From positions 30,957-94,956 of the forward strand of contig JAIRPN010000014.1 in the NCBI GenBank assembly GCA_031256975.1: a stretch of DNA of 64,000 nt, written 5' to 3'. The first letter of the stretch is position 1. Each line of letters opens with the position of its first letter. The DNA is from Verrucomicrobiales bacterium (GTDB taxonomy: Bacteria > Verrucomicrobiota > Verrucomicrobiia > Methylacidiphilales > JAAUTS01). Below are positions 7,385 to 64,000 of this stretch, piece after piece. The translations under genes and the position numbers were made by a program. The notes below the pieces were generated by a model. The model was not told the DNA's origin, did not search any database, and worked only from the letters and a program-made list of their open reading frames with translations.

Positions 7385-7523
7385 TTCTTCGTAACCGGCG
7401 TATTAACACCCCGGTTCTTGTTTCCTTATCAAATTTACCCCCGCATGGGGTGTGGGCAATTGTTGCCCGAACGGGTCTTTGGCTGCCCGAATGTTCAGCC
7501 ATGAAAAATTGAAAGAAAAATTC

Positions 7524-7952: not shown

Positions 7953-7975
7953 CAATCGATCAGACCAAAACTTCT

Positions 7976-10083: not shown

Positions 10084-10084
10084 T

Positions 10085-35142: not shown

Positions 35143-35157
35143 ACCAAGATTGTCGGC

Positions 35158-47390: not shown

Positions 47391-48635
47391 TTAAGCGGAG
47401 ATCGATTGTAGTTCCGGTGTTATCGTCCCATTGGAGATATTATTCGGTTTGAGATTGTCGACGCTGATGCGCAGGTTGAAATCGAGCAGGGTTTTTTCGA
47501 AGGCGCTGTCAATTTTTCCCCGGCCGCCGCAAGTGGCGCGAACGATCAATTCGAGCGGTGCGGGATGGGTGGCCTGCGCGACTTCACCCTTGGCCAGGGC
47601 GAGTGAACTCTTGAGCATCCAGTGGCCGATGTGATCAAAGGGCTGCTGGACCGTGCTAAGCGGGGGATCGCTGTAGTGGCTGGCGTCGGCATTATTATAA
47701 CCGAGGATGACATAATCCTTGGGTGCGCTGAGGCCGATTTTATGCATGGCGGTCATCAGGCGCAAGGCATGTTCGTCGTCATAGCTGATGATGGCGAGAT
47801 CTCCCCGGTATTCTTTCCAGCGGTCAGCCAGTTGATCGATGGAATTGGCGTTGGGGCTGACCAAGCCGCAGAGTGTCGGCAGGTTTTCCCGCGACATGTG
47901 GCAGGAATAGGCGCCGAGTTTTTGTTGGAAGACCGTGTCGCCGGGATTGTCCGGGCCCAGGAATGCGATGCGCTGATGACCCAGTTTGGCGAAGTAACGG
48001 CATAATCCCTCGGTGCCGGATAATAGCGTAGAACCAAACAAATGGGCGGCTTCGAAGCAATTCTTCTCCAGTCCCGGGATTAGCATGGGCAGGCTGACCG
48101 GCAAGGGGCAACGATGGATAAACGCGCGTACTTGATCGGTCATCTCAAAGGGGAACCAGGGCAGGGTCAGGGCTGTACAACCCTCTTTCACCAGCATTTC
48201 TGCCTGGCGCAGACTGCTGTCCGAAAAATCGCGCACCCAGCAGGAACGCAGGTCGATTTTTTGCTCCATGGCGACATGCGCGATGGCTTGCAGCACGGCG
48301 AACGCATAAGCGTTGCTCTTTTGATAGACCAATACGCCGACACGGTTTTCACTGGGAGGCAAATCGCCGTTGCTGTTGATCGGGCGGATTTTTTCGGTAA
48401 CGAAAGTGCCGCTGCCCGTCCTGCGCACAATCAACCCGTCATCGACCAGGGGCTTTAAAGCCTTGCGGATGGTCAGGAAGTTGCATTGGTAATCAATTGC
48501 CAAATCACGTTCCGCAGGCAGTTTGGCTCCCGGCGGAAGGGTTTTCACCAGCTGGCGCAACTCTTCCTCGACCTGTTTATACTTAAGTCGCTTGATCTTC
48601 AAAATATCTTGTTCTTTCTTTTGCAACTCTAGCAC
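47391..48635 (-). CDS. Transcriptional regulator: GntR-type wHTH fused to a LacI/PBP1-type sugar-binding domain
   Basis: 414 aa. N-terminal KLPAERDLAIDYQCNFLTIRKALKPLVDDGLIVRRTGSGTFV, followed by a periplasmic-binding-protein-like core (VGVLVYQ...). The apparent start is GTG. Confidence 0.75.
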   Translation of the reverse strand: MLELQKKEQDILKIKRLKYKQVEEELRQLVKTLPPGAKLPAERDLAIDYQCNFLTIRKALKPLVDDGLIVRRTGSGTFVTEKIRPINSNGDLPPSENRVGVLVYQKSNAYAFAVLQAIAHVAMEQKIDLRSCWVRDFSDSSLRQAEMLVKEGCTALTLPWFPFEMTDQVRAFIHRCPLPVSLPMLIPGLEKNCFEAAHLFGSTLLSGTEGLCRYFAKLGHQRIAFLGPDNPGDTVFQQKLGAYSCHMSRENLPTLCGLVSPNANSIDQLADRWKEYRGDLAIISYDDEHALRLMTAMHKIGLSAPKDYVILGYNNADASHYSDPPLSTVQQPFDHIGHWMLKSSLALAKGEVAQATHPAPLELIVRATCGGRGKIDSAFEKTLLDFNLRISVDNLKPNNISNGTITPELQSISA

Positions 48636-49026
48636 TGTCCATAGCCAAAGTAAAGCATATAGCGATTTTTTATAAATTAGCGGGTTTAAACACTTTATGA
48701 AACAGTTTTTAGTAGAGGATGCAAAACAGGTTCTTATATAAGTCAGTTAATAATTAAAATTATAATCTATCTTATAACTAAGAAAATTATATGTGGAATA
48801 AGTATTAAAAACGAGAATTTAAATGCTATATAATAATACCCAAAAACAGGAATTAATTGCTATATCAATAGAGAGTATATTTTAACTAAAATAACCAATT
48901 GTGACCTTTGTATAAGAGTAAATTGGGGTTTGGGGAATGACGGATTAACTATAGCCATTGTCAATAAAGTGCTTGACTAGCTTTTTGTGTACGGTAAAAA
49001 AGTAGTAATTAAACCAAGAGGAACCG

Positions 49027-50922
49027 ATGAGAACTGGCAAACTAAAAAAACTATTGGGTAGGTGGGCGTTGATCAGTTGTGGCGGTGCTATGCTTTCAAC
49101 AGCACAGGCACAGATATACTGGAATGGTGGCAATGGTAGCTGGACAGACACAACTAAGTGGTCCACAGGCAGCGTGCCTTCCTCGACTACGGATGTTGTT
49201 TTCGATTCTGCGAATGGTGTCCAGACAATCACCTTGGGTAATACTGCGGAAGTCAAATCGTTGCTTTTTAATAATACGGCTTTAACGACATTAAGCACGG
49301 GGACTCTAAAATTGTACAACGGACTGATCATTGATGCCGCGTCCGGTGGTGTTACTTGGTCTTCGGGAAATGTTGTCATTATGAACTCGCAGACTTGGAC
49401 CAACAATGCTGCGGCCGGTAAATTGGTTTTGCCGACCACGGTGACGGCAGGGGACAGTGATGTTACGCTGACTATTAACAGCGCGTTTGCGAGCAATACC
49501 AGTGTGTTTGCCAATCTTTTCAAGGATTCGGCTAACGGAAAATTGTCCTTGGTATTTAATAACGCCAATTTCGACTGGAAGGGTGTTCAAAGTTACAGTG
49601 GCAATACAACCTTTGAGTCAGGATATGTCAAATTATCGGTGAGTAATGCGACGGGTATTTTTGGCTCGGGCACTGTGTTTCTGGGGGGTGGTAGTGGTGT
49701 GACTTTGGCTGCGGCCGCGAGTGGCACAAATGTGTTGATTAATGATATTGTAGTCAAGGCGGGTTCGACTGTTGTTTCGGCCATTATTTCGAATGATAAA
49801 TATTTGGTGCTTAACGGTAATATTTCACTGAGTTCAACGTTGAGCTTGAGTGCCGGATCATCTTCAACCGTCAACTCTCTTCTCGCTAACGGCGTTATTT
49901 CCGGGGTGGGCGGTTTATTGATCAATGCTTCAAAAGCTGGCAGCGATGTCACCTTCGCCGGTGCCAACAGTTATAACGGTGACACAAGCCTTACGACCAA
50001 TGCCACTCTGAAAATTACCAATGACCAGGCATTGGGTCTATCGGGCAACAAGGTGCATATGGGAAATAGCTCTGTCTTGGAATACACTGGAAATTCCAAT
50101 GGCACCACTAATCAAGTAATAGGATTGAACGGAGGTGCCAAGCAGACTGCCACGTTGCGTGCCTCCGGCGCCGGTGCATGGAATGTGACCCAGGCGATAG
50201 ACATGAACGATGGCGGTTCTCAGGATAGAACCTTGGTCCTTGCCGGTACGAGTACGGCATTGAACACTGTTTCGGGAGCAATTACCAATGCGACAGGCAA
50301 ATTGACCTCGGTAACCAAAAGCGATGCCGGTACTTGGGTGCTCAGCGGTATCAACACTTACAGCGGTTCCACGACGGTTTCCGCCGGTACTTTGTTGATC
50401 AATGGCAACTCATCCGGTGTGACCAATAATGTCGGAGTCAGTTCCGGCGCACGCTTGGGTGGCACCGGTACCATTGGCGGTGCGACAACCTTGTCCGGAG
50501 CTGCGGTTTTAGTGCCGGGTGGCGATAATGTAATTGGCACTTTTACTTTCAGTAATGGGTTATCCCTGAGCGATGGTTCCATTTTGAATTTTGATCTGGG
50601 CGGTGCTTTGGGTGACAAAATTGTCATTAGTGGCGGTTCTTTCCTGAGTGGCGGTATCAGCACCATTGATTTGAATGTACTATCAGGATTGACGGCGGGG
50701 ACTTACACGTTGTTGGACTGGAGCAGTGTGACGGGGAGCACGATCAATCTAAGTAATTTCGTGCTGGATACCGGCAGCAGTACGATAGGCACGTTGAGTT
50801 TAAGCGGCAATAGCCTGGTTCTTAATGTAACCGTGATTCCTGAGCCCTCAACCTGGGTATTGATGACGGTTGGCGTTGTGGTGCTGGCCTGGACTGTGCG
50901 GCGGCGTGCCGCGAAAGTTTGA
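49027..50922 (+). CDS. Autotransporter-associated beta-strand repeat protein with C-terminal PEP-CTERM sorting signal
   Basis: 631 aa with a signal peptide, then IYWNGGNGSWTDTTKWS. Has many roughly 30-aa repeats (G.GTL.L.G.NTYSG.TTV.AGTLL.NG). C-terminus is VIPEPSTWVLMTVGVVVLAWTVRRRAAKV. Confidence 0.8.
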   Translation: MRTGKLKKLLGRWALISCGGAMLSTAQAQIYWNGGNGSWTDTTKWSTGSVPSSTTDVVFDSANGVQTITLGNTAEVKSLLFNNTALTTLSTGTLKLYNGLIIDAASGGVTWSSGNVVIMNSQTWTNNAAAGKLVLPTTVTAGDSDVTLTINSAFASNTSVFANLFKDSANGKLSLVFNNANFDWKGVQSYSGNTTFESGYVKLSVSNATGIFGSGTVFLGGGSGVTLAAAASGTNVLINDIVVKAGSTVVSAIISNDKYLVLNGNISLSSTLSLSAGSSSTVNSLLANGVISGVGGLLINASKAGSDVTFAGANSYNGDTSLTTNATLKITNDQALGLSGNKVHMGNSSVLEYTGNSNGTTNQVIGLNGGAKQTATLRASGAGAWNVTQAIDMNDGGSQDRTLVLAGTSTALNTVSGAITNATGKLTSVTKSDAGTWVLSGINTYSGSTTVSAGTLLINGNSSGVTNNVGVSSGARLGGTGTIGGATTLSGAAVLVPGGDNVIGTFTFSNGLSLSDGSILNFDLGGALGDKIVISGGSFLSGGISTIDLNVLSGLTAGTYTLLDWSSVTGSTINLSNFVLDTGSSTIGTLSLSGNSLVLNVTVIPEPSTWVLMTVGVVVLAWTVRRRAAKV

Positions 50923-50986: not shown

Positions 50987-52783
50987 ATGATTCGGGTTAT
51001 GAAAAACACAAACAAGTTATCCTTCTTATTGTTGTTCCTTGCGCTGCTTGTGACCTGCTGGAAAATCCACGCACAGGGAAGTTCGGATGTCGCGCCGGGA
51101 GGAGCCGGAGCGGCGGCGGTTAATCCGGCGGATTATGGCGGGGGAAATGTGTCGCCACCAGCAGGGCAGCCAAAGGCGGCTTCGCCATTGGCGACGGGGC
51201 CAACCGGTGAATCGATACTCAGCAATGGCGATTTTGCCAAGGCAACGAAGAATCCGCAATGGCCGGATGAATGGCCGGACGCCAACGGTGAGCCGGTGAC
51301 AAGGGAATCCGAGGACGGGAAATATTTTTTGCGTTTCGCGGCCCAGTCGGAAAACCAGTTGGTGCAATTGACGCGCGCGGTGCCGCTGCCGCAGGGAGTG
51401 AAGGGGCTGGAGTTTTATGCGAGGTTTCGCACGGCGAATGTGAAATTCGGCAAGGGTTTTACCAATGATGCCCGGTTGGTGTTTCGTTTTGATGACGCTA
51501 ACGGCCAGAAATTGCCCTCGCCCGGCGATGTGATTTTTGATTCCCATGCCAAGGACTGGACCGATGTCAGCCGAAAATTCCTGGTGCCGGAAGGAGCGGT
51601 GTCATTGAAGATTATTCCGGGTTTGAACCGGCCCAAATCCGGCGTGCTGGATTTGCAGGAGATCAAATTGTGTGTGATGCCCGCTACGGAAGCGGATGCG
51701 ATGATTGCCGAAGCTGATGCCAAGGTGAGGGCTCATGAGTTGGCGGTGAAGAGAAATGAGGAAATGACGGGACAAATCGCCGGTGATTTGCAATTGCCAC
51801 CGCTAACAGCGGAGTTGAAAGTGTCGGGCAATAAACTGGTGAAAGCGGCTAATGGCGAGACCGTCATTTTGCAAGGTGTGAATGTATGCAGCCTGGAATG
51901 GTCCGCCAAGGGCGAGCAAGTGCTGCTTTCGATCAAGGTGGCGATTGAAGAATGGAAAGCCAACGCGATCCGCCTGCCGGTGTACGACGGTTTTTGGTTT
52001 GGGCGCGGCAAGGGTAATGTGACCGCTAATGACGCGGAAGCTTACCGCAAGATTGTGGATGACGCGGTCAAATTGGCGGCGGCAAAGGGCGCTTATATTA
52101 TCCTCGACCTGCATCTGTTTCATATTCCGGAACAAAACGCGGTGGAGTTTTGGCAGGATGCCGCGGCGCGATACAAAAATAATCCGGCGGTGCTGTTCGA
52201 CATGTTCAACGAGCCGACCGGAATCAGCTGGGAGCAATGGCGCAACGGCGGCGACATTAGCGTCAAGCAGAAGGACAAAAAATTGCCGCCGCTAATCGTG
52301 AAATCGCCGGGCATGCAAGGGATTCTCGACGCGATCCGCACGACGGGTGCGAAGAACGTGGTGGTGGCGGGCGGCGTTGGCTACGCGTATGATCTCGGCG
52401 GATTATTAGAGGTTGGCGTACTCGATGACAAGGGAGGCAACGGCGTGGTGTATGCGACGCATTTTTACAACTGGCACGGCGGCTGGGAGTCGCATTTCCT
52501 GAAGGTGGCGGAGAAGTATCCGGTGCTGGTCGGAGAATTCGGCGCCGATGTGAAAAAGATGTCCTTTATTCCGGCCAACAAGCAGGAGGATCCGTACACG
52601 TGGAGTCCTGACGCACTGGCGATGATCCAGCAATACCAGCTCAGCTGGACGGCGTTTTGCCTGCACCCCAAATCAACGCCTCGCCTGATCAACAGCTGGG
52701 ATTACGACCCAACTCCGTTTTGGGGGCAATTCGTCAAGGACGCGCTGGCGGGCAAGAAATTCGAATTACAAAAACTGCGCTAA
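50987..52783 (+). CDS. Glycoside hydrolase family 5 (cellulase-type) with N-terminal carbohydrate-binding-like domain
   Basis: Signal peptide present (alternative ATG at 50999: MKNTNKLSFLLLFLALLVTCWKIHAQ). GH5 blocks IILDLHLFH, FDMFNEP (acid/base), THFYNWHG and VLVGEFG (nucleophile). Confidence 0.8.
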   Translation: MIRVMKNTNKLSFLLLFLALLVTCWKIHAQGSSDVAPGGAGAAAVNPADYGGGNVSPPAGQPKAASPLATGPTGESILSNGDFAKATKNPQWPDEWPDANGEPVTRESEDGKYFLRFAAQSENQLVQLTRAVPLPQGVKGLEFYARFRTANVKFGKGFTNDARLVFRFDDANGQKLPSPGDVIFDSHAKDWTDVSRKFLVPEGAVSLKIIPGLNRPKSGVLDLQEIKLCVMPATEADAMIAEADAKVRAHELAVKRNEEMTGQIAGDLQLPPLTAELKVSGNKLVKAANGETVILQGVNVCSLEWSAKGEQVLLSIKVAIEEWKANAIRLPVYDGFWFGRGKGNVTANDAEAYRKIVDDAVKLAAAKGAYIILDLHLFHIPEQNAVEFWQDAAARYKNNPAVLFDMFNEPTGISWEQWRNGGDISVKQKDKKLPPLIVKSPGMQGILDAIRTTGAKNVVVAGGVGYAYDLGGLLEVGVLDDKGGNGVVYATHFYNWHGGWESHFLKVAEKYPVLVGEFGADVKKMSFIPANKQEDPYTWSPDALAMIQQYQLSWTAFCLHPKSTPRLINSWDYDPTPFWGQFVKDALAGKKFELQKLR

Positions 52784-52847: not shown

Positions 52848-53879
52848 CTATTGACGGTAATAGAGTTCCAAGCTGGATTTGATGCTGTAATAAGAAGGTT
52901 TGGGGCGGTTTTGGCAATCCACCAAACCCCAGGCGGTTTCGGCGGGGCAGTCCGGCTGCCCGCATTGCCAGCAGGTTGGCTGGTCGTTCCAGCGGTAATA
53001 GACGGCGCCAATGACGAAAGGTTTTTGTGCGAAGATGCGGTAACTCTCGGAGATAAAATCCGCCTGTGTCCCGGGATTATGCGCGCCGCGCCAGGAGTGC
53101 TTCCATTTTTTTACTTGGCAGGGGTAGTTGTTTTTCGTTACTTCCTCGCAAGTCATCAGGTCTCCGGCGGATGAGTAACCGAATTCCTGGATGAGTATGG
53201 GTTTTCGGGTCAACGCGTGAAATGCGTCCAGATAATCATTCCAACTTTCGGGGCCGCCCTCACGCCAAGTGCCGGGGTAACTGTCAAAACCGGCGTAATC
53301 AACCGGCAGGTCCGGATCCTCGTAGATACTTTTTGCCAAAAAAACGCCCTCGTGCCGGTCAGTATTGCCATCCACTTCGCCGGGGCGGGATGGAAACAAG
53401 GTGAGATTGATCCCGACTTTGGACCGGTGGTTAGCGTCCTTGAGGCCGCGGATTCCGGCTTTCAGGAATTCCGCCGACTGTTCCAGTGTGAGAGAGTCAC
53501 GAAAAATCCAGATATCCAACTCGTTGGCAACCTGCCAATAGTCGATCAGGTCGCCATAAGTTTGGCCCAGAAACATGCAGATTTTCCGGTAATTATCCAA
53601 ATACCGTGCCGAACCGGCAGGCCCGGCGATAGCGGGCATATCCTTGGGGCCGGGCGTGATGCCGATGAAACGAAACCCGGCTTCGCGTAATTTGGCCATG
53701 GTTTCACGATGATGGAAAAAATCGGCCGGCTGCCCGCGATTGGTGAGGAAATATTCCGCGGAAAAACCCGGGGTCCCGGTACGCAGTCCGTTTAAACCGG
53801 CGGCGCGCAGCCGTTGTCTGTCAACTTCCGTCAGCTTTTCAAAGGCAACCGCGACGCCGGCGAAAAAATTCTGTGCCAT
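52848..53879 (-). CDS. Putative clan GH-A (TIM-barrel) glycoside hydrolase-like protein
   Basis: 343 aa. WQVANELD (candidate acid/base) and PILIQEFGYSS (candidate nucleophile) have GH-A-like spacing. No signal peptide. Starts 7 nt after the stop of the upstream FAD gene. Confidence 0.45.
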   Translation of the reverse strand: MAQNFFAGVAVAFEKLTEVDRQRLRAAGLNGLRTGTPGFSAEYFLTNRGQPADFFHHRETMAKLREAGFRFIGITPGPKDMPAIAGPAGSARYLDNYRKICMFLGQTYGDLIDYWQVANELDIWIFRDSLTLEQSAEFLKAGIRGLKDANHRSKVGINLTLFPSRPGEVDGNTDRHEGVFLAKSIYEDPDLPVDYAGFDSYPGTWREGGPESWNDYLDAFHALTRKPILIQEFGYSSAGDLMTCEEVTKNNYPCQVKKWKHSWRGAHNPGTQADFISESYRIFAQKPFVIGAVYYRWNDQPTCWQCGQPDCPAETAWGLVDCQNRPKPSYYSIKSSLELYYRQ

Positions 53880-53886
53880 GCCGTTG

Positions 53887-55560
53887 TTAGCGTTCTTCCG
53901 TTGCGGGCTTGGACAATTCGACGACCTGCTGGTCCTGCTTCAATCGTTGCTTGAGTTTTTGATAATCCAGATCCTGCACGCTAACGGCGGTGTCAATCGA
54001 CAGGGCGGCGGCCGTGGCGGCGCTTTGGCCGAGCGCCATGAATACCGGTTCCATGCGGATGGAACCATAGGCGATATGGGTGGAGGACAGGCAGACAGGG
54101 ACCAGCAAATTCCGGCATTCGGAAGCTTTGGGGGTGATGGCGCGATAGTCGATTTGATAAGGCTTGCCGACGGGTTTTTGCACGTCGCCTTCGTTGCGGA
54201 CATGACCGTTGGCGTCGACATAGCGTTGCGTGTTGTGTGAATCCATGGCATAGGCTCCCATGGCGATGGATTGTGGGGTAACCGCCTTGCGCAAGACCGG
54301 CTCGCTAATGACGAAGTCGGTAATCATGCGGCGGGCCTCGCGAATATACAATTCAGCGGGCCAGTGTCCGGTATCGGCGAATTCGTCCTTGGGCAAGCCC
54401 CAAGCTTTATAGGCATTGCGGATTTTTTCGGGAACGCGGGGACTATTTTGCAGGGTCCAGATCAAACCCAATTGCCAGTTCTTGTGCGTTTCGGCGATTT
54501 CCTCGCGTTTGGCATAATCGGCTTCCGGGTAATCGTAATTCATGCCGATGTAATCGGTGGAAATTCCGGAATCATTGTTGGAATCGGTCTTTTCATTGGG
54601 CAGGGCACTCAGCTTGAAAAAACGGCTGTCCTGTCCGGTTTCGATGGCGCGGAACAAAAGTTCATAATCCGCTTCTTTGTAGTCGGCAGGCTTATCAACG
54701 GCAATGCGATTTTCCGGCTTGTTGGTCAGGCACATGCGGTAGCAATAGGCTTGGATTTTGTGATCCGCGCTGCCATCCGGGCCGCCGCTGTTAGCGTTGA
54801 CGCCGGGCAACAAGCCACTGTTGGGTTGGCCTTTGACGACATAAGGATCAATGCCTTGGGGTAGTTGATTTTTCACGGATTTTTCCGCCTGGATGCCATT
54901 CAGGGTTTCACCATATTGCGAATTCGCTTCACGCCCGACGGTGTAACTGACCCGGGCGGCGGCCATCAAGTCGCCCTCGTAAGTTGCATCGATGAAAACC
55001 TTGGCGCTAATGGCGCGGCCATCCTCGAGGCGGATTTGCGTGATAGTGGCGTTCTCGTTGGTGACGCCATTCTTGCGGTCAAGCCGTCCGGTTATGACCG
55101 GAACTTTATTTTCGGTGACCAACTGGTCAAAGATGTTTTCCGCGACATGGGGTTCGAATACAGTGGCAATCTGGAACCGGTCATCCAGGCCGGGGCCATG
55201 CTGTCCCTTGTTGCCGAATTGTTCGCGACTCTGGAATTTCCAGGCGGAATCCTGCCGGTAATACAACCAAATCCGGTGGAAATAATCGCGGGTCAGGCCG
55301 CCAAGGATGCGGTTGTCGCCCATGTCGGTGAAGCCGAGTCCGTTGCTGGTGAGCCCGCCCAGATGTTTCATCGGCGAGACGAGAATGACACTCTTGCTCA
55401 TTTTGGCAACTTGCACGGCGCTAATGACGCCGGCGGAGTTGCCGCCGTAAATACAAATATCCACGTTCATGATTTTTTCTTCATTGGCGTTCAGAAGCCT
55501 GGCGGATAAAAGCAGTCCGCAAATGGTCGCTATCCATGGGATTTTATGCAGATGGTTCAT
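53887..55560 (-). CDS. Secreted FAD-dependent oxidoreductase (FAD_oxidored family common in PVC CAZyme loci)
   Basis: 557 aa with a signal peptide and the dinucleotide motif DICIYGGNSAGVISAVQVAK. Its start overlaps the upstream stop by 4 bp. Confidence 0.7.
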   Translation of the reverse strand: MNHLHKIPWIATICGLLLSARLLNANEEKIMNVDICIYGGNSAGVISAVQVAKMSKSVILVSPMKHLGGLTSNGLGFTDMGDNRILGGLTRDYFHRIWLYYRQDSAWKFQSREQFGNKGQHGPGLDDRFQIATVFEPHVAENIFDQLVTENKVPVITGRLDRKNGVTNENATITQIRLEDGRAISAKVFIDATYEGDLMAAARVSYTVGREANSQYGETLNGIQAEKSVKNQLPQGIDPYVVKGQPNSGLLPGVNANSGGPDGSADHKIQAYCYRMCLTNKPENRIAVDKPADYKEADYELLFRAIETGQDSRFFKLSALPNEKTDSNNDSGISTDYIGMNYDYPEADYAKREEIAETHKNWQLGLIWTLQNSPRVPEKIRNAYKAWGLPKDEFADTGHWPAELYIREARRMITDFVISEPVLRKAVTPQSIAMGAYAMDSHNTQRYVDANGHVRNEGDVQKPVGKPYQIDYRAITPKASECRNLLVPVCLSSTHIAYGSIRMEPVFMALGQSAATAAALSIDTAVSVQDLDYQKLKQRLKQDQQVVELSKPATEER

Positions 55561-56339
55561 GGGGTTTTGGCAGTGGTGTTTATTTTATCAATGGCGGCTT
55601 GAAATTCCTTGGGAATGACCTGCATGGAAGAAGGAGGCTGGAGATAGGTATAAGCGCGGGTTTCGCCGTCGAATGTTAACTCGACGGGATAACGGTTGGA
55701 AACTTGGATGTAAGCGGTGGCGTTCACCTTGTTTTCTTCTCCGCTAACCATGGCGGGGTCGAAGTGTTCGGGCAAGGTGATTTGTTCGAGATACAAGCGT
55801 TGGCTGAAGACGAGACAATCAGTACCCTGGTGTTTTTGAATGCCGACAAAATTGGATTTATTGATCCAGGTGAAGCCGGGAAAATTATTTTGCGTCAGGG
55901 TGTTGTCAATGCGGACGTTTAACTGGCTGATGCCGGGAATACGTTCAACACAGGCTTGTTCATTGGCCCATTGGTCAAGACGGTCGCCTTTGTCAAAGAT
56001 GCGTTCTTCATGCCGGATAGTACCGGTAATGGTGACGGTTGTTTGTACCGGGCGGGTCATATTGATCACCTTGAGATTTTTTTGGCGGTTGAGCATTTTG
56101 GCAAAAAGCGGATCTTTTGCCGCGAGTTCCGCATTTTTTTTGTCGATAGCGGCTTGCTGCTGTTGTTCCTGTGTGGCGGATTTGGCCGTGTAACGATAGT
56201 CGACCTGCCATTTGATGTTGGCGGGAAGCTGGTTGACGATCAGCGGGCCCTTCTCCAGGGCGGACAAATCCGGTTCGTTTTGCGCGCGGGAGGCGCTAAT
56301 GGCGAACAAGCAGCATGAAAATAGGATGATGGATTTCAT
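55557..56339 (-). CDS. Hypothetical secreted protein
   Basis: 260 aa with signal peptide MKSIILFSCCLFAISASRAQ. ATGA overlaps at both ends, to the giant cassette protein upstream and the FAD gene downstream. Confidence 0.5.
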   Translation of the reverse strand: MKSIILFSCCLFAISASRAQNEPDLSALEKGPLIVNQLPANIKWQVDYRYTAKSATQEQQQQAAIDKKNAELAAKDPLFAKMLNRQKNLKVINMTRPVQTTVTITGTIRHEERIFDKGDRLDQWANEQACVERIPGISQLNVRIDNTLTQNNFPGFTWINKSNFVGIQKHQGTDCLVFSQRLYLEQITLPEHFDPAMVSGEENKVNATAYIQVSNRYPVELTFDGETRAYTYLQPPSSMQVIPKEFQAAIDKINTTAKTP

Positions 56340-59300
56340 TCGTTGACGATTTCTAGTTGGCTATCAATTACTTTGCCCGTGTAACGGTCAATGGCCACGT
56401 GCAGCCAATAATGTTTTTCCCCTTCCACTGTAAATTTGCCCAGGTTGGTTTCTTCGGGAGCAAATCGTCCGCTTTGGGCGACCAGGTCGATCAGCAGGTT
56501 CCAAGTGCGGGCGGTCCCGCAATCTGCCAAGGCCCGGATGACGGATTCGCGCTGTCTGGTGATTAACGCCATTTCGGGTGTGTCTTGCCGGATGTTCTGG
56601 ATGGTGCCGGTGGTGGCGATGAAGCCCGCGAAATTGTTGTCGTAGTAGGCGGCGGGATTGTTAACGTCCGGCGTGGGAGGTGTGGAGCCGCTATTGATCC
56701 AGGAACCCACCAGGTCGGCGCGATTGGTGATGGTTCTTGTGTTGGTTGTGTAATCGACGTAGCTGTTGCCGATGGTTGCGGCGGCGGTACTGGAGATCAG
56801 CAGGGATGAGTTGGTTTCGTCGCGTTGCACGCCAGAGATGAGGGCGGCGATGACAGGAGATTGTCTGGTGTTGAGATCAAGTCTGCCGGCGACAAGAGCA
56901 TCACTGTTAGTGTTGTCGTTGATGCAAAAAACATCAAGGAGCGCAGAGTCGCCGCTTTCGGGAAAGGAGAAATTAATGTTTCCCCAGGGTGTGTCACGGA
57001 AGGCATAGCCGAGTTCGGCGACGGAGCGAAAGGGTCGGTTTAGAATCAACGGACGGCTGGCATTGTTGCCGGCGACCATGGGCAGGCCGATGGATTGGGT
57101 GTCACTGCCGCCATTGACAGGATCGGAGGCGTAGCCACCCATGGTGCGACGTACGATGCCATCAGGGTCCCGGTTAAAATGACGTTGCTCGGCGACGGAA
57201 TCCTGCGGATGTTTGCGTACGGTATTTTCCGCCCAATAACCGTGTTGAAACCCATAGTAGGCGTTATTGTCCACATAGGTGGTTTTATTGCCGACGATGC
57301 CGACATCGGTCCTGGTGTTCATATGCGTGGCAAAGGATCTGCCGGTATCCGGACGGGCACTGGCCCAGATTACCGGGTAATCGCTATTGTCGTAAGGGCT
57401 CAACATGTAATGCAGACATTCTCCCATATGGATGCCCCATCTGGAGGTGCGAGGGTCGGTTCGCATGCCACCGTACCAGTTGTTGGCATTTTTGAAAGGT
57501 TGCAACAGGCTGTCGGCGTTTTCCACGACAAAGTTGTTGCCGGTGTAAGGCATGTAGGGAGCCTCGTCATAGGTGACCCACGTGCCATTTTGCTGGTACT
57601 GCAAGTAAAGGCGTAATTCGCTATTGTTGCCGCTTTCCGTGGGGGCGAACTGCATAAGCCGGTTGGTGGGGTCGGAGGATTGCGGGTTGGACCATGGGAA
57701 CATTGCCATTAGCAGGCCGGTGATGTTTTTTCCGGACCCCTGGTAAGTGTAAGTATAGCCCGCCAGATTACTGCCAGCGGGTAAGCCGGGTTGCGCAAGC
57801 ATGGTGGGTTCGCGGAAATTGGTGCCGCTGACGCTAAAGGTGAGTTGTAATTCCGTCGGTGGATTCCCGGATTCTGATTTTTTGTAATAGTCCCCATCAC
57901 TTTCATAAGTCGGAGAGTTGAAGACAAAGTAAGTGGCGATGTCCGATTGAGTGGGGGCGATGTCGGTGGTGCTACCTTTATTAACCCCGTATTTGAGAGA
58001 TCCCATTTTGAACGGAATCGAAGAGGGGGCTTTTCCACCGGAAGTGATGTAGGGGTCCTTGGTGACGTAGATGCGGAAATTTTGCGGGGAATTGGTGACT
58101 GAGTTGGAGCTGGCCGGATCGTGGGGATTCCAGATTTCGGGGAACAGCAATAAAACGGCGGTGTTTGCACCGACATGGGCGTACCAGTTACGGGCGCGGT
58201 AGAGATAGGGCAGATCCTCGACGCCGCGAACTTCAATGGCACTGCCGTTGGGGTCGATCAGGCCGGTTTGAATGCGGGTCGGGAAATTGTCCGAATCGTA
58301 CTGGTCGATGATATTGGCGCCAATTTGCATGATTTGCAAATCAGTCACAGTGTCGCGCGCGTGCTGCATCCAGGAAACGGCACCGGTGGTTTGCCATCCA
58401 CCCCATTGGTCGTCGCACAGCGATTTGCCGATGCTGCCGGCATTAATGGCGGCTTTGAGCAGCTCGAAGAAATTGGGTTCACGGCTGCTAATTTCGGACA
58501 ATTTCATGATGCCGCCGTTTGTGGCTGTATCCCGATAAGTCCATAGGCCATTGCCGCTGGACTCGAGTCCGAAATATTTGCGGATGGAAGCGGTGTCGGA
58601 ACCGGCCAGCAGGCCGATGCGGGACAGGGGAAACCGTCTTTTGAGCAAAGGTTCACCTACTTGCGCGACAGTACCATCGGCTCGTGTGAAAGAAGCTGTT
58701 ACCCGCACGGAAAGCAAGGAGGGGTTTATGGCATCATCCAATCCCTTTGCGTCATTGCCGGTGCCGAAGCCGCTATTGGTACTGGCGTTATTTTGGATTT
58801 TTGGTCGATTGGGATTGGGGACGTAGGAAGGTTGGTCGGTATCACGGGTGAAGGTGGCGAGATATTGTAGGGGTTTGAGTTGGTAAGTGCCGCTGGTAAA
58901 GAATTTGATCAGCTGCTGGCGGCTGGTGAAAGGCTGGTCGGTGATGCTGTTGTAGGTCAGGGTGCCGGTTTGCAGAAAACCGGTGGTGTTGCTTTGAATG
59001 AAATCGTAATAGCGTTTGCCGTTGTCGGGAAATTTATAACCGCTGGTAAAATCGCCTGATGCTTGCGCAGAGGCGTAGTTGCGCCAACCGATCAGGTCGT
59101 CGATTTCACCATCGATCATGCCGATCGAGTGAAGGTCGGCGAAGGCTTCGTTGCCTTTGTTGGCGTAGCCCCAGACCGCGTTGGTGCCGGAGATGGCTTG
59201 TTTGGCATGCATGGAGGTTGGATAGCCGGCGACGTTGGCGTCGAGGAGTCCTCCTTCGTTGAAAATGGCGTAGGCGTAGCGACCAATGATCGGGCTGCGG

Positions 59301-59902
59301 GTGCTGGGATTGGCAATCGGGCCTGTGCCAGTGACATAGATCCAGTCGGGAGCGGTGAAACCGCAATTGGGATCGGGATTGGTGCCGACCTGGGTGGCAC
59401 TGTATGAAGAATCGCGCGGGATCAGGTAGTGCTTGTTCCAGCGGGAAGGGCTGACGTATTGTCCATTAAGTGCTGAAGTGGTGGAGCTGATACTGGAAGC
59501 GAGGTGCAGGGCTGCACTGTCACTGCCTGAGCTGATGCGAATAAGATTGGGAATCGGATCGGTGCCGCTGGATAATGGTGGATTGCCGAAGCGCCTCGGT
59601 ACGGCGTTGCTGCCGCTAATGGGGAAATAGGTGGTGAAGGTGCCGGAGGTTGAGGGCGATGTTGAACCATTGACAATTTCCTGTTGCAAGTCGCCAATCA
59701 CGACCTGCAAGGCGCTTTGGCCAAGTGTCGCCGACTTGAAATCATTGAAGCTGCTGTTGGCGAGGTTTTGATAGCTGCGGGTTTGCGAGAAGAAGGCCAA
59801 AACCAATACCGTGAGCAGGACGACAAATGCCAGCACGATGATCAAGGCTGCACCACGTTGTGGGTGACCGGCTAACGATGCTGTTGGAAAGTGTTTCCGC
59901 AT
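56336..59902 (-). CDS. Giant GspK-like minor pseudopilin-type protein (resembles 'Verru_Chthon cassette protein A')
   Basis: Start re-set to the ATG at 59902, 5 nt after the upstream stop, giving about 1188 aa. N-terminus is MRKHFPTASLAGHPQRGAALIIVLAFVVLLTVLVLAFF. This is the GspK-type hydrophobic segment (QRG-[AV]ALI.VL), lacking Glu+5. The rest of the protein has no recognised domain. Confidence 0.65.
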   Translation of the reverse strand: MRKHFPTASLAGHPQRGAALIIVLAFVVLLTVLVLAFFSQTRSYQNLANSSFNDFKSATLGQSALQVVIGDLQQEIVNGSTSPSTSGTFTTYFPISGSNAVPRRFGNPPLSSGTDPIPNLIRISSGSDSAALHLASSISSTTSALNGQYVSPSRWNKHYLIPRDSSYSATQVGTNPDPNCGFTAPDWIYVTGTGPIANPSTRSPIIGRYAYAIFNEGGLLDANVAGYPTSMHAKQAISGTNAVWGYANKGNEAFADLHSIGMIDGEIDDLIGWRNYASAQASGDFTSGYKFPDNGKRYYDFIQSNTTGFLQTGTLTYNSITDQPFTSRQQLIKFFTSGTYQLKPLQYLATFTRDTDQPSYVPNPNRPKIQNNASTNSGFGTGNDAKGLDDAINPSLLSVRVTASFTRADGTVAQVGEPLLKRRFPLSRIGLLAGSDTASIRKYFGLESSGNGLWTYRDTATNGGIMKLSEISSREPNFFELLKAAINAGSIGKSLCDDQWGGWQTTGAVSWMQHARDTVTDLQIMQIGANIIDQYDSDNFPTRIQTGLIDPNGSAIEVRGVEDLPYLYRARNWYAHVGANTAVLLLFPEIWNPHDPASSNSVTNSPQNFRIYVTKDPYITSGGKAPSSIPFKMGSLKYGVNKGSTTDIAPTQSDIATYFVFNSPTYESDGDYYKKSESGNPPTELQLTFSVSGTNFREPTMLAQPGLPAGSNLAGYTYTYQGSGKNITGLLMAMFPWSNPQSSDPTNRLMQFAPTESGNNSELRLYLQYQQNGTWVTYDEAPYMPYTGNNFVVENADSLLQPFKNANNWYGGMRTDPRTSRWGIHMGECLHYMLSPYDNSDYPVIWASARPDTGRSFATHMNTRTDVGIVGNKTTYVDNNAYYGFQHGYWAENTVRKHPQDSVAEQRHFNRDPDGIVRRTMGGYASDPVNGGSDTQSIGLPMVAGNNASRPLILNRPFRSVAELGYAFRDTPWGNINFSFPESGDSALLDVFCINDNTNSDALVAGRLDLNTRQSPVIAALISGVQRDETNSSLLISSTAAATIGNSYVDYTTNTRTITNRADLVGSWINSGSTPPTPDVNNPAAYYDNNFAGFIATTGTIQNIRQDTPEMALITRQRESVIRALADCGTARTWNLLIDLVAQSGRFAPEETNLGKFTVEGEKHYWLHVAIDRYTGKVIDSQLEIVNE

Positions 59903-59907
59903 AGGAT

Positions 59908-60813
59908 TTAGTTGGCGAAGGTTGAGAGGTAAAACAGGCGGCTGTAAATATACACGCCGCCTTTTTTCGGCGCGGGCAGGGAACTGGAATTGACCGTACT
60001 CTGCCAATTTTGTTCGAGTTGGCCCATGGTGGCGTTGGGTTGGAAGTCGCGCATTTGCGAGGCAAGGTTGACGGCTTCGTCAGTGGTCATGATGGTTGCG
60101 GATTTGCGGTCGAGCACGGCGATGGTCACGCCGATGGCGGTCACGTCTTTGAGGCCGTTGATGGTACCGGTGTCATCACCGTTGCTGTCGAACTGTGGAA
60201 TCCAGGGGGTGGCACTAAGGGTGCCGTTGCGCAGCAAATAGTCGTATTCAAAGCGGATGATATTGGGGGTGATGACTTCGTAATCGGAGTCTGTGGCTGT
60301 TGAACTGATTGCGGTTGGCCAGGCGGAACTGATGGTTAGAGGCAGGAAAATTGCCGGGGTTTGGCTGTTGGCGTTGCTCCAGGGAAGCGCCTTGCTCATG
60401 CGTTCAACGTAGGGACGCTGGTTGGTGCTGCCGGAATTGAGCCGGTAAGCGACAAGGGAGATCGAGTTTGAAGTGTTACCGCCGGAAGATGAATAACCCG
60501 GTACTTCGCAGTAGAAAGCCAGCTGATCGTTTTTGTTGGAGTCAGTGGAGGAGTAACCGTCGTTGCCCTTGAGATAATAGTCAACGTCGACACGTTTGAC
60601 GATACGGGAGAAATCAGCGGCCATGCGGGCGAATAGCAGGCGGGCGGTGTTGTCGGCGTCGAGGTGGGAGTTGCTCAGGTTGGTGACGCGGGTGGTGCTG
60701 TTGAATAACTGCGCGACCAAGGCGACGAGGATCAAGAGCACGGTCACCGCCACCAGAATTTCGGTGAGGGTGAAGCCTCTTGCGGTCGCTAATGATGATC
60801 TTGGTGCGGGCAT
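59908..60813 (-). CDS. Prepilin-type N-terminal cleavage/methylation domain protein (GspJ-like; cassette protein C-like)
   Basis: 301 aa. ARG|FTLTEILVAVTVLLILVALVAQLF, with Glu at +5. Confidence 0.75.
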   Translation of the reverse strand: MPAPRSSLATARGFTLTEILVAVTVLLILVALVAQLFNSTTRVTNLSNSHLDADNTARLLFARMAADFSRIVKRVDVDYYLKGNDGYSSTDSNKNDQLAFYCEVPGYSSSGGNTSNSISLVAYRLNSGSTNQRPYVERMSKALPWSNANSQTPAIFLPLTISSAWPTAISSTATDSDYEVITPNIIRFEYDYLLRNGTLSATPWIPQFDSNGDDTGTINGLKDVTAIGVTIAVLDRKSATIMTTDEAVNLASQMRDFQPNATMGQLEQNWQSTVNSSSLPAPKKGGVYIYSRLFYLSTFAN

Positions 60814-60828
60814 TGCGAGAGATGACGG

Positions 60829-61275
60829 TTAGTGCCGGTTGAGGGCGACAAAAGTTTCGACCGTCCCGCTGGGGGGCTGGGTTGGATTTTCCACGACCGG
60901 CCAAGTCACCTTCAGGCTGCAGTAGATCGACTGGCTGCCGCTGTATTGGCGAATGGCGATGGTACTCAGTTGATACAAGGCGCCGTTTTTTTGGGTGGTG
61001 CCGGTGTTGTCGAAATACAGAGTGGTGCTGCCAGACAGGTTGATCCGGTATTGGGAAGATTGGGAAACGGTGCCGGAAGTGGCGTATAGGTCTGCGGCGA
61101 CCGAACTGAGAATCGAAGTGGCCGCGGTTTGCTGGATGGAATTGCGGTTATTCGCCAAGCCGACCGGCAACAAGCCAAGCACCGCCACCAGACAAAAGGC
61201 CACCACGCCAAGGGCCAAAGTTACTTCCACCAGGGAAAACGCCCGTTGCCGCCGGTGTTGGGTTAAGCGGTTCAT
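60829..61275 (-). CDS. Prepilin-type N-terminal cleavage/methylation domain protein (GspI-like; cassette protein B-like)
   Basis: 148 aa. RQRA|FSLVEVTLALGVVAFCLVAVLGLL, with Glu at +5. ATGA overlap with the upstream gene. Confidence 0.7.
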   Translation of the reverse strand: MNRLTQHRRQRAFSLVEVTLALGVVAFCLVAVLGLLPVGLANNRNSIQQTAATSILSSVAADLYATSGTVSQSSQYRINLSGSTTLYFDNTGTTQKNGALYQLSTIAIRQYSGSQSIYCSLKVTWPVVENPTQPPSGTVETFVALNRH

Positions 61276-61991
61276 CGGCGATAGATTTCTACGTTTCCTC
61301 CTGCTCCGGTAAATTGGATGGCCGCGACATTTTTATTGTTGCTGTCGACCCGGCTGCCTTGGGTCGGGCACAAGCCGATTTCGCCGATGCGCGGCAAATC
61401 GGTCTCACCATTGATGCTGGCTTCGCCGTTGGGGCTGAAGCGGACGGTTTGGTTGAAAGTATATTGCAACATGTTGAGTGGATGCGGGGTTTGCGCGCTG
61501 GATTCGCTGTTGACACGGAATTTTGAACTCTCATCGCCAGTGTAAGGATCGTCCGGGCGACCGTCAAGGGAGGCGGGATTATTGCCGCCAGCCGGAGCGG
61601 CAAGATCGGCCAGGTGAACGTTGTCCAGGCGGAGTAATTTTTCAATTGCCACAATACGGTTGGAGGGAAGCGACGCGGTGGTTGACGAGTCGTCGAAAAT
61701 TTGTGTCCCGTCGATGGATGCGGCCATCGCAATCAACACACGCCCGCTGCCCGGCGTATTGGCGGAAGCGGTTGGCGAGGCGCTTTCCTCGTGGAAGCCG
61801 ACCCACACATAGGTGTTATGGGTCATCGCATAGGTGCGGGCACGTTGCAGGGCCGAGGCGATTTCATAGGCCGAATTGGTGATATTGCCTGCGGTTTGGA
61901 GACCGGACAGGGCAGGTACGATCAGGGCGGTCAATGCGGACATGACCGCGACGACCACCAGCAACTCTATCAAAGTAAACGCTTTTTTCAT
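61272..61991 (-). CDS. Prepilin-type N-terminal cleavage/methylation domain protein (GspH/FimT-like; cassette protein D-like)
   Basis: 239 aa. MKKA|FTLIELLVVVAVMSALTALIVPAL, followed by a GspH-like ...EIASALQRARTYAM helix. First gene of the cassette. Confidence 0.8.
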   Translation of the reverse strand: MKKAFTLIELLVVVAVMSALTALIVPALSGLQTAGNITNSAYEIASALQRARTYAMTHNTYVWVGFHEESASPTASANTPGSGRVLIAMAASIDGTQIFDDSSTTASLPSNRIVAIEKLLRLDNVHLADLAAPAGGNNPASLDGRPDDPYTGDESSKFRVNSESSAQTPHPLNMLQYTFNQTVRFSPNGEASINGETDLPRIGEIGLCPTQGSRVDSNNKNVAAIQFTGAGGNVEIYRR

Positions 61992-62292
61992 TGGATGCTC
62001 CTGCGCTTGCTAATTAATACAGCTTTTACATAGCGCTTTATATATATTTTGGCAAACAAAAACTTTTGCTTTGGTGGTAAAGTAAGTTTTGCATACTTTT
62101 GGCTTTTGGGATTCACCTAACCGCCATTTCTCTGAATGAAGCCGGTATAAAATGCAGCTGAAAAATTGTTCCAAAGGGTTAACCCTCCAGTGACTGGTTG
62201 CTTATCGAGGGGAGTAACTTGTACAGCTTTTAACCTGTCAATGGCTAAATTTTAGACTTGCAATTACTATAGCAAGAATATAGCTATCGAAG

Positions 62293-64000
62293 ATGCGCGC
62301 CCGCAATTTGTTGTCTGACGACTTATCCCTGCAGCAGCTTGAAGAGATTCTTTCGCGTCATCCCAAGCGTCCATTGTTGCCATCGTTGGGAGAGAATGAG
62401 TGGCGCCGTGCCGCTAATGACCGGAATGTACAATCCCTGATTGCCCCGTTGCGCGAGATGGCATTGGCGGAGTGTGATGTGCCAATGCCGGTGCTGACAG
62501 ACGAGCTTTACGCGCATTTCAAGCAAACCGGCATCCGTCTGAATTTTGAGCGGGAATATTTCGAGCGTCGCCGCCGTTTGGGGCGGGCGGCAATTTCATT
62601 GTTGCTTTGTGATAAACAGGACCCGCGTTATGACGCGCTGTTAGCGTCCGTGACGGCCAAATTGACGGATATTTTCGAGGAAGTGTCGTGGGCCCTGCCG
62701 GCACATGTGCATTGGCACGATGCCGATGTAAGCGGCAAGGAGCCGATGCAGATTGATTTGTTTTGCGCGGAAACGGCGAATTTGATGGCGGAGTGCCTGG
62801 ACTTGTTTGGCGGGGTGTTGCCATTGGCGCTGCGGCAGCGGATTCGCGACCGTCTGCACAAGATGGTGTTTGAGAATTATCTGGCGACGCCGTTTCATTG
62901 GAAAACAGTGACGCACAACTGGAATGCGGTCTGTCATCAAGGCGTAGTCGGTGCCGCATTGTCGCAAGTGGAGGACGCTTCGCTGTTAGCGTCAATGCTG
63001 CTCGAGGCGCGGAAAAATCTGCCGTATTTTCTACAGGGATTCACTGCGGACGGTGGCTGCACCGAGGGCGTGGGTTATTGGAGTTACGGTTTCGGGTGGT
63101 TCACACGGTTGAACGAGCAACTGGAGACGCGTACCGGCGGGGAATTGTCATTGTTCGCTAATAATGAACTGGTGAAAAAAATCGCCCGTTTTGGCCCGCG
63201 CATGGCCTTGTCGGGCAACAAGCTGGTGAATTTCTCCGACAATGGCGCGGAAGGCGGTATCAGTCCATCGTTGTTAGCGTACTTTGCCAAGGTATTGGAG
63301 GAGCCGCGTTATGCGGATCTGGCGGCGGAGAATTATCGTACCTTGCTAGCGCAGGGCATGGACAAAGGCGCGGAGCGTTGTGATGTATTTTTGCTGGGGC
63401 GTCTGGTGTTGTGTTTGCCGGCGGATCTGGACCGGACGCTAACGGCGAAGTCGGAGGAAGATTGTTATCTGGACAAGCTGGGCGTGCTGGTGGCGCGGGG
63501 AACGGACGCCAACGGCCATCGCTGGGATTTCGCGGCGAAGGCCGGGAACAACGACGAGCATCATAATCATAACGACTGTGGCAACTTCCTGCTGAATATT
63601 GACGGTCGCCGGGTGGTGATGGAGATTGGTGCGCCGGAGTATGTGCACGATTATTTCGGACCGAAGCGTTACGAATTTCTTGCGGCGCGCAGCCTGGGGC
63701 ACTCGCTGCCGGTGATCAATGGTTGCGAACAGTCGGCTGGCGCGGAATTCACTTCGCGGGTGACGCGTTGTGAATTCACGGATGACGGCGCCTGTTTCGG
63801 AGTGGATGCGACGGCGGCATATCCGCCAGCGGCGAAGTGCGAGCTGTTCAAGCGGAGTTATCGGTTGTTCAAGCGCGAGGGCAGGCTGGAAATCCGCGAT
63901 GAATTTGTTTTGCAGGAAGCGGGGCAATTGGAAGCTGCGCTGGTTTTGTCGCAGCCGGCCCGGTTGCAAGACCCGCATTGCGCGGTGGTGGATTTGGACG
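62293..64000 (+). CDS. Heparinase II/III-family (polysaccharide lyase-like) protein, 3'-truncated by the window edge
   Basis: Manual translation from the ATG at 62293 stays open to 64000 (569 codons): MRARNLLSDDLSLQQLEEILSRHP... Contains ...HNWNAVCHQGVVGAA..., GCTEGVGYWSYGF and EHHNHNDCGNFLL, which are typical heparinase II/III blocks. The ORF track omits it because it has no stop in the window. Confidence 0.75.
   Translation, partial: MRARNLLSDDLSLQQLEEILSRHPKRPLLPSLGENEWRRAANDRNVQSLIAPLREMALAECDVPMPVLTDELYAHFKQTGIRLNFEREYFERRRRLGRAAISLLLCDKQDPRYDALLASVTAKLTDIFEEVSWALPAHVHWHDADVSGKEPMQIDLFCAETANLMAECLDLFGGVLPLALRQRIRDRLHKMVFENYLATPFHWKTVTHNWNAVCHQGVVGAALSQVEDASLLASMLLEARKNLPYFLQGFTADGGCTEGVGYWSYGFGWFTRLNEQLETRTGGELSLFANNELVKKIARFGPRMALSGNKLVNFSDNGAEGGISPSLLAYFAKVLEEPRYADLAAENYRTLLAQGMDKGAERCDVFLLGRLVLCLPADLDRTLTAKSEEDCYLDKLGVLVARGTDANGHRWDFAAKAGNNDEHHNHNDCGNFLLNIDGRRVVMEIGAPEYVHDYFGPKRYEFLAARSLGHSLPVINGCEQSAGAEFTSRVTRCEFTDDGACFGVDATAAYPPAAKCELFKRSYRLFKREGRLEIRDEFVLQEAGQLEAALVLSQPARLQDPHCAVVDLD

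Follow-up and report, generated by a model that had tools for sequence, protein, structure and literature searches.

What does a set of minor pseudopilin genes do in a sugar-degradation neighborhood that holds no pseudopilus machine? The question is raised by a 64,000-nucleotide stretch from a Verrucomicrobiales bacterium (assembly GCA_031256975.1, contig JAIRPN010000014.1, positions 30,957 to 94,956; this whole stretch is called the window here), in which four pseudopilin-like genes, one of them giant, run into a gene for a secreted protein. The five genes are called D, B, C, A and E. We consider it most probable (roughly 0.55) that these genes form a satellite tip module, particular to this locus, which serves a shared type IV filament machine, most likely a type II secretion system (T2SS). 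This reading draws on the anatomy of the genes, the conservation and paralogy of their families, their genomic contexts, and one paralogous cassette that adjoins a gspD-E-F-G operon.

Seven co-directional genes are tightly packed on the minus strand at 52848–61991. The first three encode minor pseudopilin-like proteins with a prepilin cleavage site (marked by an arrow): D (61272–61991, 239 aa, GspH/FimU-like) with KKA↓FTLIELLVV, B (60829–61275, 148 aa, GspI/PilV-like) with QRA↓FSLVEV, and C (59908–60813, 301 aa, GspJ/PilW-like) with ARG↓FTLTEI. They are followed by A (56336–59902, 1188 aa), a giant GspK/PilX-type protein with QRG↓AALII and no glutamate at position +5 (Glu+5), and by E (55557–56339, 260 aa), which is secreted and carries the signal peptide MKSIILFSCCLFAISASRAQ. 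A secreted FAD-dependent oxidoreductase (53887–55560, 557 aa) and a glycoside hydrolase (GH)-like gene (52848–53879, 343 aa, without signal peptide) complete the run. Overlaps of 4 nt are found at the D/B, A/E and E/oxidoreductase junctions, and gaps of 15, 5 and 7 nt separate B from C, C from A and the oxidoreductase from the GH-like gene, respectively. Independent gene calls on the same contig in the public assembly give the same seven product sizes. The first-pass annotation of this DNA, made from the letters alone, had described this packing, the three prepilins with Glu+5 ahead of a 1188-aa GspK-type protein without it, and the translational coupling of the 260-aa protein to A; coordinates, gene calls, sequences and family alignments all agree with it.

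In a six-frame scan of the window, N-terminal prepilin motifs occur in D, B and C alone, all adjacent, and no GspG-like gene was found elsewhere in the 64 kb. Of the 37 window open reading frames (ORFs) that we scanned against Pfam, which include most of those of at least 200 aa, none encodes a T2SS or type IV pilus ATPase, platform protein or secretin, just as the first-pass annotation had stated for these components and for a major pseudopilin. The ORFs scanned encode, by Pfam, efflux systems, ATP synthase, two-component systems and metabolic enzymes. The 8 kb past the window end hold a heparinase-like gene, two GH5 genes, two unassigned genes and no gsp gene, and so no full gsp operon lies next to the locus, in the window or in the 8 kb beyond.

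Against NCBIfam, the best matches of the four pseudopilin-like proteins are, in gene order, Verru_Chthon cassette proteins D, B, C and A; the next-best models are GspH/ComGD, PilV/XpsI, GspJ/ComGF and GspK. Together with the Glu+5 pattern, these matches bear out the H-I-J-K-like order and features proposed earlier. Glu+5 is invariant in the D family alignment, in 38 B homologs and in the C homologs. The scores themselves are mostly low. B passes the curated cutoff of its model (TIGR02598, 60.3 bits against 51.4, residues 12–96), and it is the only one of the four to do so; the matches of D, C and A are confined to the N-terminal 60–73 residues. D reaches 43.5 bits against a cutoff of 70 (TIGR02596, residues 5–77 of 239) and matches the GspH and ComGD models more weakly still; Pfam detects in it an N_methyl motif and a sub-threshold GspH match (E 0.005; 17.7 bits against a cutoff of 21). 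C reaches 27.2 bits against 256.5 (TIGR02599, residues 13–72), and its match to pilins in the Protein Data Bank (PDB) is confined to the N-terminal helix. A reaches 31.4 bits against 332.3 (TIGR02600, 60 N-terminal residues); 13 of 21 A homologs match the same model at E 1.9e-8 or weaker, and none of the 21 comes near the cutoff. The scores also stay below the curated GspH, GspI, GspJ and GspK cutoffs (TIGR01708 GspH, 30.3 against 80 bits; TIGR01711 GspJ, 19.3 against 64.85; NF037980 GspK, 16.3 against 130).

The Verru_Chthon cassette, known only through its HMMs, is defined in the TIGRFAM descriptions as a D-B-C-A array occurring several times per Verrucomicrobial genome. The likeness to our locus is close: its models (TIGR02596, TIGR02598, TIGR02599 and TIGR02600) describe the same order of three prepilin-type proteins and then a protein of approximately 1200–1300 aa, it is present in multiple copies in Verrucomicrobiota, and its models are the top NCBIfam matches of all four proteins here. 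It differs in that its models cover neither E as a fifth gene nor the setting in sugar loci. The first-pass annotation had equated the two. The gene order and the B score uphold this, but D, C and A fall far below their cutoffs, so that, by curated definitions, the cassette is a separate, uncurated sister lineage rather than a member. The Verru_Chthon cassette is unmentioned in the open-access full text that we searched.

The giant protein A is 1188 aa long from its ATG; the longest ORF, from a TTG start, gives 1223 aa. Its N-terminus, QRG↓AALIIVLAFVVLL, has Ile at position +5. Each of the 74 homologs that align here has I, V or L at this position and none has Glu; the residue preceding the cleavage site is Gly in 64 of 76. 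The absence of Glu+5 is the GspK/PilX hallmark, and the N-terminus is of the K type, QRG↓(A/V)AL(I/V)(I/V)VL. A differs from GspK in being three to four times larger and in having no PDB relative by sequence profile; a GspK-type α-domain was likewise undetected by the profile search. The family has more than 1221 full-length homologs of 1060–1430 aa at 33–54 % identity, in which no Pfam domain was found, and those with named hosts belong to Chthoniobacterales, Terrimicrobium and Methylacidiphilales. The AlphaFold2 model built from 76 sequences is confident (pLDDT 84.7, pTM 0.89). It predicts a 60-residue N-terminal helix (residues 18–78), a mixed region up to approximately residue 560, a β-rich region (543–830) of lowest confidence, and a C-terminal α/β part that finishes with three long strands. 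Foldseek found no PDB neighbor of this model at E ≤1e-3. Conservation is uneven along the chain. Residues 1–570 and 900–1188 are conserved (column entropy 0.9–2.1 bits), and residues 570–900 form a hypervariable, β-rich module (2.3–3.2 bits, up to 45 % gaps).

A relatives are encoded in 432 stretches of GTDB species-representative genomes. We read 79 of these loci, almost all of them from Verrucomicrobiota, and together with the window, its own contig (L001) and a Terrimicrobium locus they make 82 locus sets. With our own ORF calls and iterated HMMs, the order D-B-C-A-E is conserved in most of approximately 80 loci, with sizes of 217–335 aa for D, 134–211 for B, 271–448 for C, 1070–1670 for A and 206–284 for E. 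In 75 loci there is room for an E gene after A; 50 of these have it as the very next gene, and in 29 of the 50 the two overlap by 4 nt. The figure of 50 is an underestimate, since at least one E called by NCBI was missed by our ORF caller. The conserved unit is thus five genes, not four, and the coupled 260-aa protein is its fifth member. In Terrimicrobium sacchariphilum a 240-aa E homolog occupies the same position (27 % identity, E 1e-22). Word-indexed searches with the single E sequence and then with a 52-sequence profile returned only 3 proteins; an exhaustive profile search returned 1178 clusters at 50 % identity, nearly all of 220–280 aa. Searches of E against Pfam, NCBIfam and PDB sequences gave no family or match. 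The best Foldseek matches of its model are LprG, RseB, LmcA, VioE and LolA, which share the LolA-like fold. The match to LprG (3mha) has an E-value of 3.7e-4, probability 1.0 and a TM score of 0.35–0.42, from a poor model (pLDDT 57, four sequences), and we tentatively assign E a LolA/LprG-like β fold. Two loci carry two E-family genes after A (L014, 13805–15414; L043, 14185 onward), and in another (L066, 160–4795) A is directly followed by a further D-B-C set, giving tandem cassettes.

The complete 5.6 Mb genome of Chthoniobacteraceae SH-KS-3 (CP170506.1) holds at least 12 copies of the cassette. Across the loci, the surroundings are those of sugar catabolism. Downstream on the same strand, 62 genes were sorted by Pfam; they include MFS sugar transporters, GH38, CBM4_9, GH35, lacto-N-biose phosphorylase, rhamnose isomerase, heparinase, sulfatase and regulators of the periplasmic-binding-protein (PBP) type. 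Among 88 upstream neighbors we found LacI/GntR-PBP regulators, GDSL esterases, GFO/IDH/MocA oxidoreductases, GH30, GH130, GH1, GH42, rhamnosidase, fucosidase, sulfatases and heparinases. Sugar transporters of the MFS and SSF families are among the nearest neighbors, and in several loci inspected, including L083 and L085, a regulator stands immediately upstream of the cassette. At least 30 of the 150 nearest neighbors have GH, carbohydrate esterase (CE), polysaccharide lyase (PL), carbohydrate-binding module (CBM) or sulfatase Pfam domains. The SH-KS-3 genome paper counts 260 GH, CE and PL domains among 4664 genes (PMC11596606), a baseline of at most 5.6 % domains per gene in CP170506.1. Neighbors of the carbohydrate-active enzyme (CAZyme) type are therefore enriched approximately three- to fourfold (rough binomial p ~1e-9), a value to be read with the limits that the baseline is rough, being taken from a single genome, and that each census covers only its top 25 Pfam families. 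Carbohydrate-related neighbors such as those noted for the window thus recur across the family.

The neighbor sets are unlike between paralogs and kept between orthologs: the mean number of neighbor families in common is 0.03–0.06 below 40 % A identity, 1.3 at 50–70 %, and 2.5 above 70 %. Three copies in CP170506.1 (L032, L034 and L037), whose A proteins are 54–57 % identical, have 2–4 neighbor families in common, which indicates segmental duplication.

Which machine would these cassettes serve? In CP170506.1, one paralog, which lacks E, lies directly after genes for a secretin, GspE, GspF, a 363-aa protein and GspG. The secretin has the GspD N0 domain, and the GspG belongs to PF08334. The earlier suggestion that the cassette is "not classical secretion" is therefore not supported. 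D-B-C-A is not the usual occupant of the H–K slot of the core T2SS operon; we tried this interpretation and rejected it, since the arrangement was seen in CP170506.1 only. We fetched 14 metagenome loci around close GspG relatives, and 9 of these include 3.7–10 kb downstream (approximately 7 are distinct, at least two pairs being apparent duplicates). The E-F-unknown-G block is conserved in the related loci, but D, B, C and A follow gspG in none of the 9; each stops at gspG, and unrelated genes on the opposite strand lie past it. By gene content, the core operons of this lineage thus carry no minor pseudopilins. In the T2SS, minor pseudopilins prime pseudopilus assembly. Core operons without them must therefore obtain their tips from genes at other sites, for which the dispersed cassettes are the obvious candidates.

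The protein between gspF and gspG, of 363–385 aa, has no Pfam match; it is present in CP170506.1 (L088, 4746–5837) and in 14 of 14 metagenome loci (L090–L103). It may be an analogue of GspC, GspL or GspM and supply the assembly-platform or inner-membrane component that this reduced T2SS otherwise lacks.

On this evidence, we propose the following. D, B and C would be the equivalents of GspH/FimU, GspI/PilV and GspJ/PilW, and A a giant GspK/PilX-type capping subunit anchored by its pilin-like N-terminal helix. A prepilin peptidase encoded elsewhere would process all four proteins, which we infer form a tip complex in the inner membrane. This complex would prime fiber assembly on a machine encoded elsewhere, most likely the GspD/E/F/G T2SS. 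The module would be produced together with the neighboring enzymes, here the GH5 enzyme, the secreted FAD oxidoreductase and a PATR-repeat protein with a PEP-CTERM anchor; co-production is suggested because the lineage keeps many paralogous modules, no two in the same sugar-catabolic locus and each locus having a LacI/GntR-type regulator to itself. Residues ~570–900 of A could lend the shared machine a locus-specific property, either by docking the cognate secreted enzymes for export or by binding the cognate glycan on the outside of the cell. As a dedicated periplasmic partner, E may chaperone or escort A.

Compared with the T2SS tip GspH-GspI-GspJ-GspK (Xcp U-V-W-X), the order is the same, with Glu+5 in the H, I and J equivalents and none in the K equivalent. 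The differences are that the set is multiplied, dispersed from the core operon, and joined by the extra periplasmic partner E.

Several observations weigh against this proposal. The adjacency to gspD-E-F-G was seen in one genome only. The core-adjacent cassette (L088, 13224–21885), like another copy, is flanked by transposase/integrase genes, and its position could therefore be secondary. No core machinery lies near the window locus, within the part of this genome that the analysis covered. Profiles of D, B, C and A against the PDB matched N-terminal helices or nothing, and their globular parts stayed unmatched; what supports the equivalence with H, I, J and K is thus the gene order, the pattern of sizes and the N-termini, traits shared by the minor pilins of type IVa pili (T4aP). 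Some operon partners are cytoplasmic enzymes without signal peptides (the 343-aa protein here, GH38 in Terrimicrobium), so that the neighbors are not simply cargo. The rough basis of the CAZyme enrichment counts on this side as well. Finally, one E-less paralog (L073, 2183–7424) is divergent from genes for a PilB/GspE-like ATPase, an MshEN-TPR protein, a 644-aa protein of no assigned family and a small Ras/Arf-like GTPase. This set resembles a polarity-controlled pilus module, and its ATPase and Ras-like GTPase hint at a pilus rather than a T2SS.

The L073 locus is one argument for a T4aP identity, which we consider unlikely, although it is the best placed of the alternatives. In that case the cassette would be the T4aP minor pilins FimU-PilV-PilW-PilX, with A merging the roles of PilX and PilY1 as a tip adhesin, and the pili would be retractile and would serve attachment or twitching on insoluble polysaccharide, not secretion. 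The minor pilins of the T4aP show the order and features seen here, and the four priming pilins are encoded with a very large tip-associated protein. At approximately 130 kDa, A has the size of PilY1-class adhesins, and some bacteria, such as Myxococcus, have several alternative minor pilin sets. Several A homologs carry the JGI label "Tfp pilus assembly protein PilX", and type 4 pilus genes are reported in the SH-KS-3 genome paper (PMC11596606). However, the large protein here is itself a pilin-like K/X subunit, whereas PilY1 is a separate, non-pilin protein, and the β-propeller of PilY1/PilC was found in A neither by Pfam at E-values up to 5 nor by Foldseek. Only one locus has a full machine adjoining the cassette, and there the secretin is of the GspD N0 type and the pseudopilin is a GspG of PF08334. 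Genes for PilM/N/O/P/Q or PilT were absent from the surroundings of the cassettes that we inspected.

A second alternative, which we regard as rather improbable, is the one put forward by the first-pass annotation. The cassette would be a stand-alone or surface-exposed pseudopilus-tip device for the capture or processing of polysaccharide; it might feed uptake and would be a functional analogue of SusC/D-type glycan capture in a phylum without it. The recurrence of the cassette in sugar-catabolic loci with transporters and regulators fits this, as does the hypervariable β-rich module of A. The Foldseek neighbors of A, although non-significant, are β-sandwich adhesins and lectins (SdrE, PsaA, GH2 sandwich domains). 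Neither a SusC-like TonB-dependent transporter nor a SusD-like lipoprotein was found among the window ORFs scanned or the neighbor families listed; the adjacent SusC/SusD-like pair of a Bacteroidota-type polysaccharide utilization locus is thus not seen here. On the other hand, no carbohydrate-binding module was found in A by Pfam or PDB searches. Assembly and processing of minor pseudopilins require an ATPase, a platform protein and a peptidase, and a truly stand-alone device is unlikely for this reason.

A more far-reaching version, which we offer as speculation, joins glycan binding to the shared filament. The dozens of D-B-C-A-E paralogs could be exchangeable, glycan-specific tips of a retractile pseudopilus. 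Each tip might be induced by its own sugar-responsive regulator, might bind its cognate polysaccharide through the hypervariable module of A, and might pull it to or through the outer membrane, a Verrucomicrobial (PVC) counterpart of the "selfish" capture by SusC/D. We hold this version to be improbable at present; if it were true, the cassette would also mark out the polysaccharide utilization loci in genomes of the phylum.

The least probable explanation, that most satellite cassettes are redundant duplicates without a locus-specific role, spread by segmental duplication and mobile elements and linked to CAZymes only through CAZyme-dense genomes, can point to the recent duplication of L032, L034 and L037 together with their neighbors, to the transposase genes that adjoin some copies and to the heterogeneity of the neighbor families, but it fits poorly with the intact frames, tight overlaps and strong residue conservation of paralogs only 30–50 % identical, with orthologous loci that keep the cassette together with GH5, PATR and a GntR-PBP regulator at an A identity of only 46–54 %, and with a neighbor CAZyme frequency above the genome baseline.

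Those orthologous loci also separate the core of the window operon from its passengers. The closest (L082, A 54 % identical) has a window-like layout of PATR, GH5 and heparinase-like genes, then D-B-C-A-E and the FAD oxidoreductase. In L083 and L085 (A 46–47 % identical), D-B-C-A-E stands beside a divergent GntR-PBP regulator gene that adjoins D, and the oxidoreductase is absent; L083 additionally has GH5 and PATR genes. The five-gene core and its sugar-locus setting are thus conserved across orthologs. The FAD oxidoreductase matches PF12831 with 348 bits and has no sequence relative among PDB structures; PF12831 members are often annotated as xanthan-lyase-like in PVC genomes. It appears once in the downstream census, as the window's own gene. 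Within 10 kb of the cassette, its family is represented in 5 of the 82 locus sets, the window and L001 included; besides the window, only L082 has the oxidoreductase directly after E. Homologs of the 343-aa protein lie within 10 kb in 3 of the 82, again counting the window and L001. A conserved linkage to these two genes is therefore rejected except in the nearest orthologs, and both genes are recent, lineage-specific passengers of the operon. The assignment of the 343-aa protein to clan GH-A was also overstated: the matches to GH53 (E 0.09) and to a GH5 mannanase (4qp0, E 0.09) are sub-threshold, and together with NEL and QEFG motifs they make a GH-A glycosidase possible.

In the window, the cassette stands, as first described, between a GH5 and a heparinase II/III gene. 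The GH5 gene (50987–52783, plus strand; PF00150, 108 bits) encodes a secreted enzyme of the cellulase family and is convergent with the cassette operon. Beyond it lie, on the plus strand, the gene for the PATR-repeat protein with the PEP-CTERM anchor (49027–50922, 631 aa) and, on the minus strand, that for a sugar-responsive regulator with a GntR helix–turn–helix (HTH) and a PBP-type domain (47391–48635), which is a candidate regulator of the locus. PATR proteins are encoded within 10 kb of the cassette in 34 of the 82 locus sets, a proximity that may reflect the mere abundance of PATR in these genomes. The heparinase II/III-like gene (62293–64000, plus strand; PF07940) extends past the window end, encodes 636 aa in full without a signal peptide, and is divergent from the cassette.

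D and the heparinase-like gene diverge from a common promoter region (61992–62292), which contains an imperfect palindrome, CTTGCAATTACTATAGCAAG, at 62257–62276. Its core, TATAGTAATTGCA on the minus strand, is kept in the orthologous loci. Upstream of D, four orthologous loci have the block TATAGTAATT(G/A)CA without variation, although the identity of their A proteins is only 46–54 % (L082, 5697–5877; L083, 7385–7680; L085, 1355–1795; and the window). This block is a candidate operator or promoter element. TATAGC/GCTATA occurs nine times in the window, six of them inside two AT-rich intergenic regions, one upstream of the cassette and the other between the GntR-PBP regulator and PATR genes (48636–49026). 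A 12-mer common to both AT-rich regions with one mismatch was rejected, approximately 0.5 such matches being expected by chance. Around the regulator/PATR intergenic region (48001–50000), the GC content dips to 0.45, against 0.53–0.59 elsewhere.

The closest precedent in the literature is the orphan pseudopilins of Opitutales. In Verruconatronum alginivorum, a PulG-like pseudopilin gene lies within the alginate-degradation gene cluster, and the genes over-expressed on alginate include a pseudopilin; the genome has 67 copies of PulG-like genes (PMC13274419). These are likewise pseudopilins in CAZyme clusters away from the T2SS operon and are massively paralogous. They differ in being single major-pseudopilin-like genes, not a minor set with a giant K-type protein and E. 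A pilin-type subunit with a large inserted module at a fiber tip is also known: ComZ of Thermus is reported to act there as a specific receptor (PMC6561018). ComZ has no sequence or fold similarity to A and is the DNA receptor of a competence pilus. The conserved fifth gene, the giant K-type protein without fold relatives and the systematic embedding in sugar loci are undescribed in the sources that we searched.

Verrucomicrobiota rank among the major degraders of polysaccharides, in soil and freshwater as well as in the ocean and the gut, and they are not known to have the SusC/D logic that makes Bacteroidota loci readable. A five-gene module that occurs at least 12 times in one genome and tracks sugar catabolism would offer a practical way to recognize the loci concerned and a handle on how these bacteria couple secretion or capture to individual polysaccharides. 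It offers a testable hypothesis, that one type IV filament machine is reprogrammed by interchangeable tips, and A and E are in themselves large, structurally uncharacterized protein families. Experiments are feasible because one organism with a syntenic locus, Terrimicrobium sacchariphilum, is in culture.

Two further features of the window lie outside the locus. Efflux genes are dense at 249–13222 and 32474–38370; they include two tandem 706-aa paralogs of the FUSC family, grouped with a membrane-fusion protein and outer-membrane factors, and two separate AcrB-type RND systems are also present in the window. The GC skew is positive in all 2-kb bins of the 64 kb, irrespective of gene strand.

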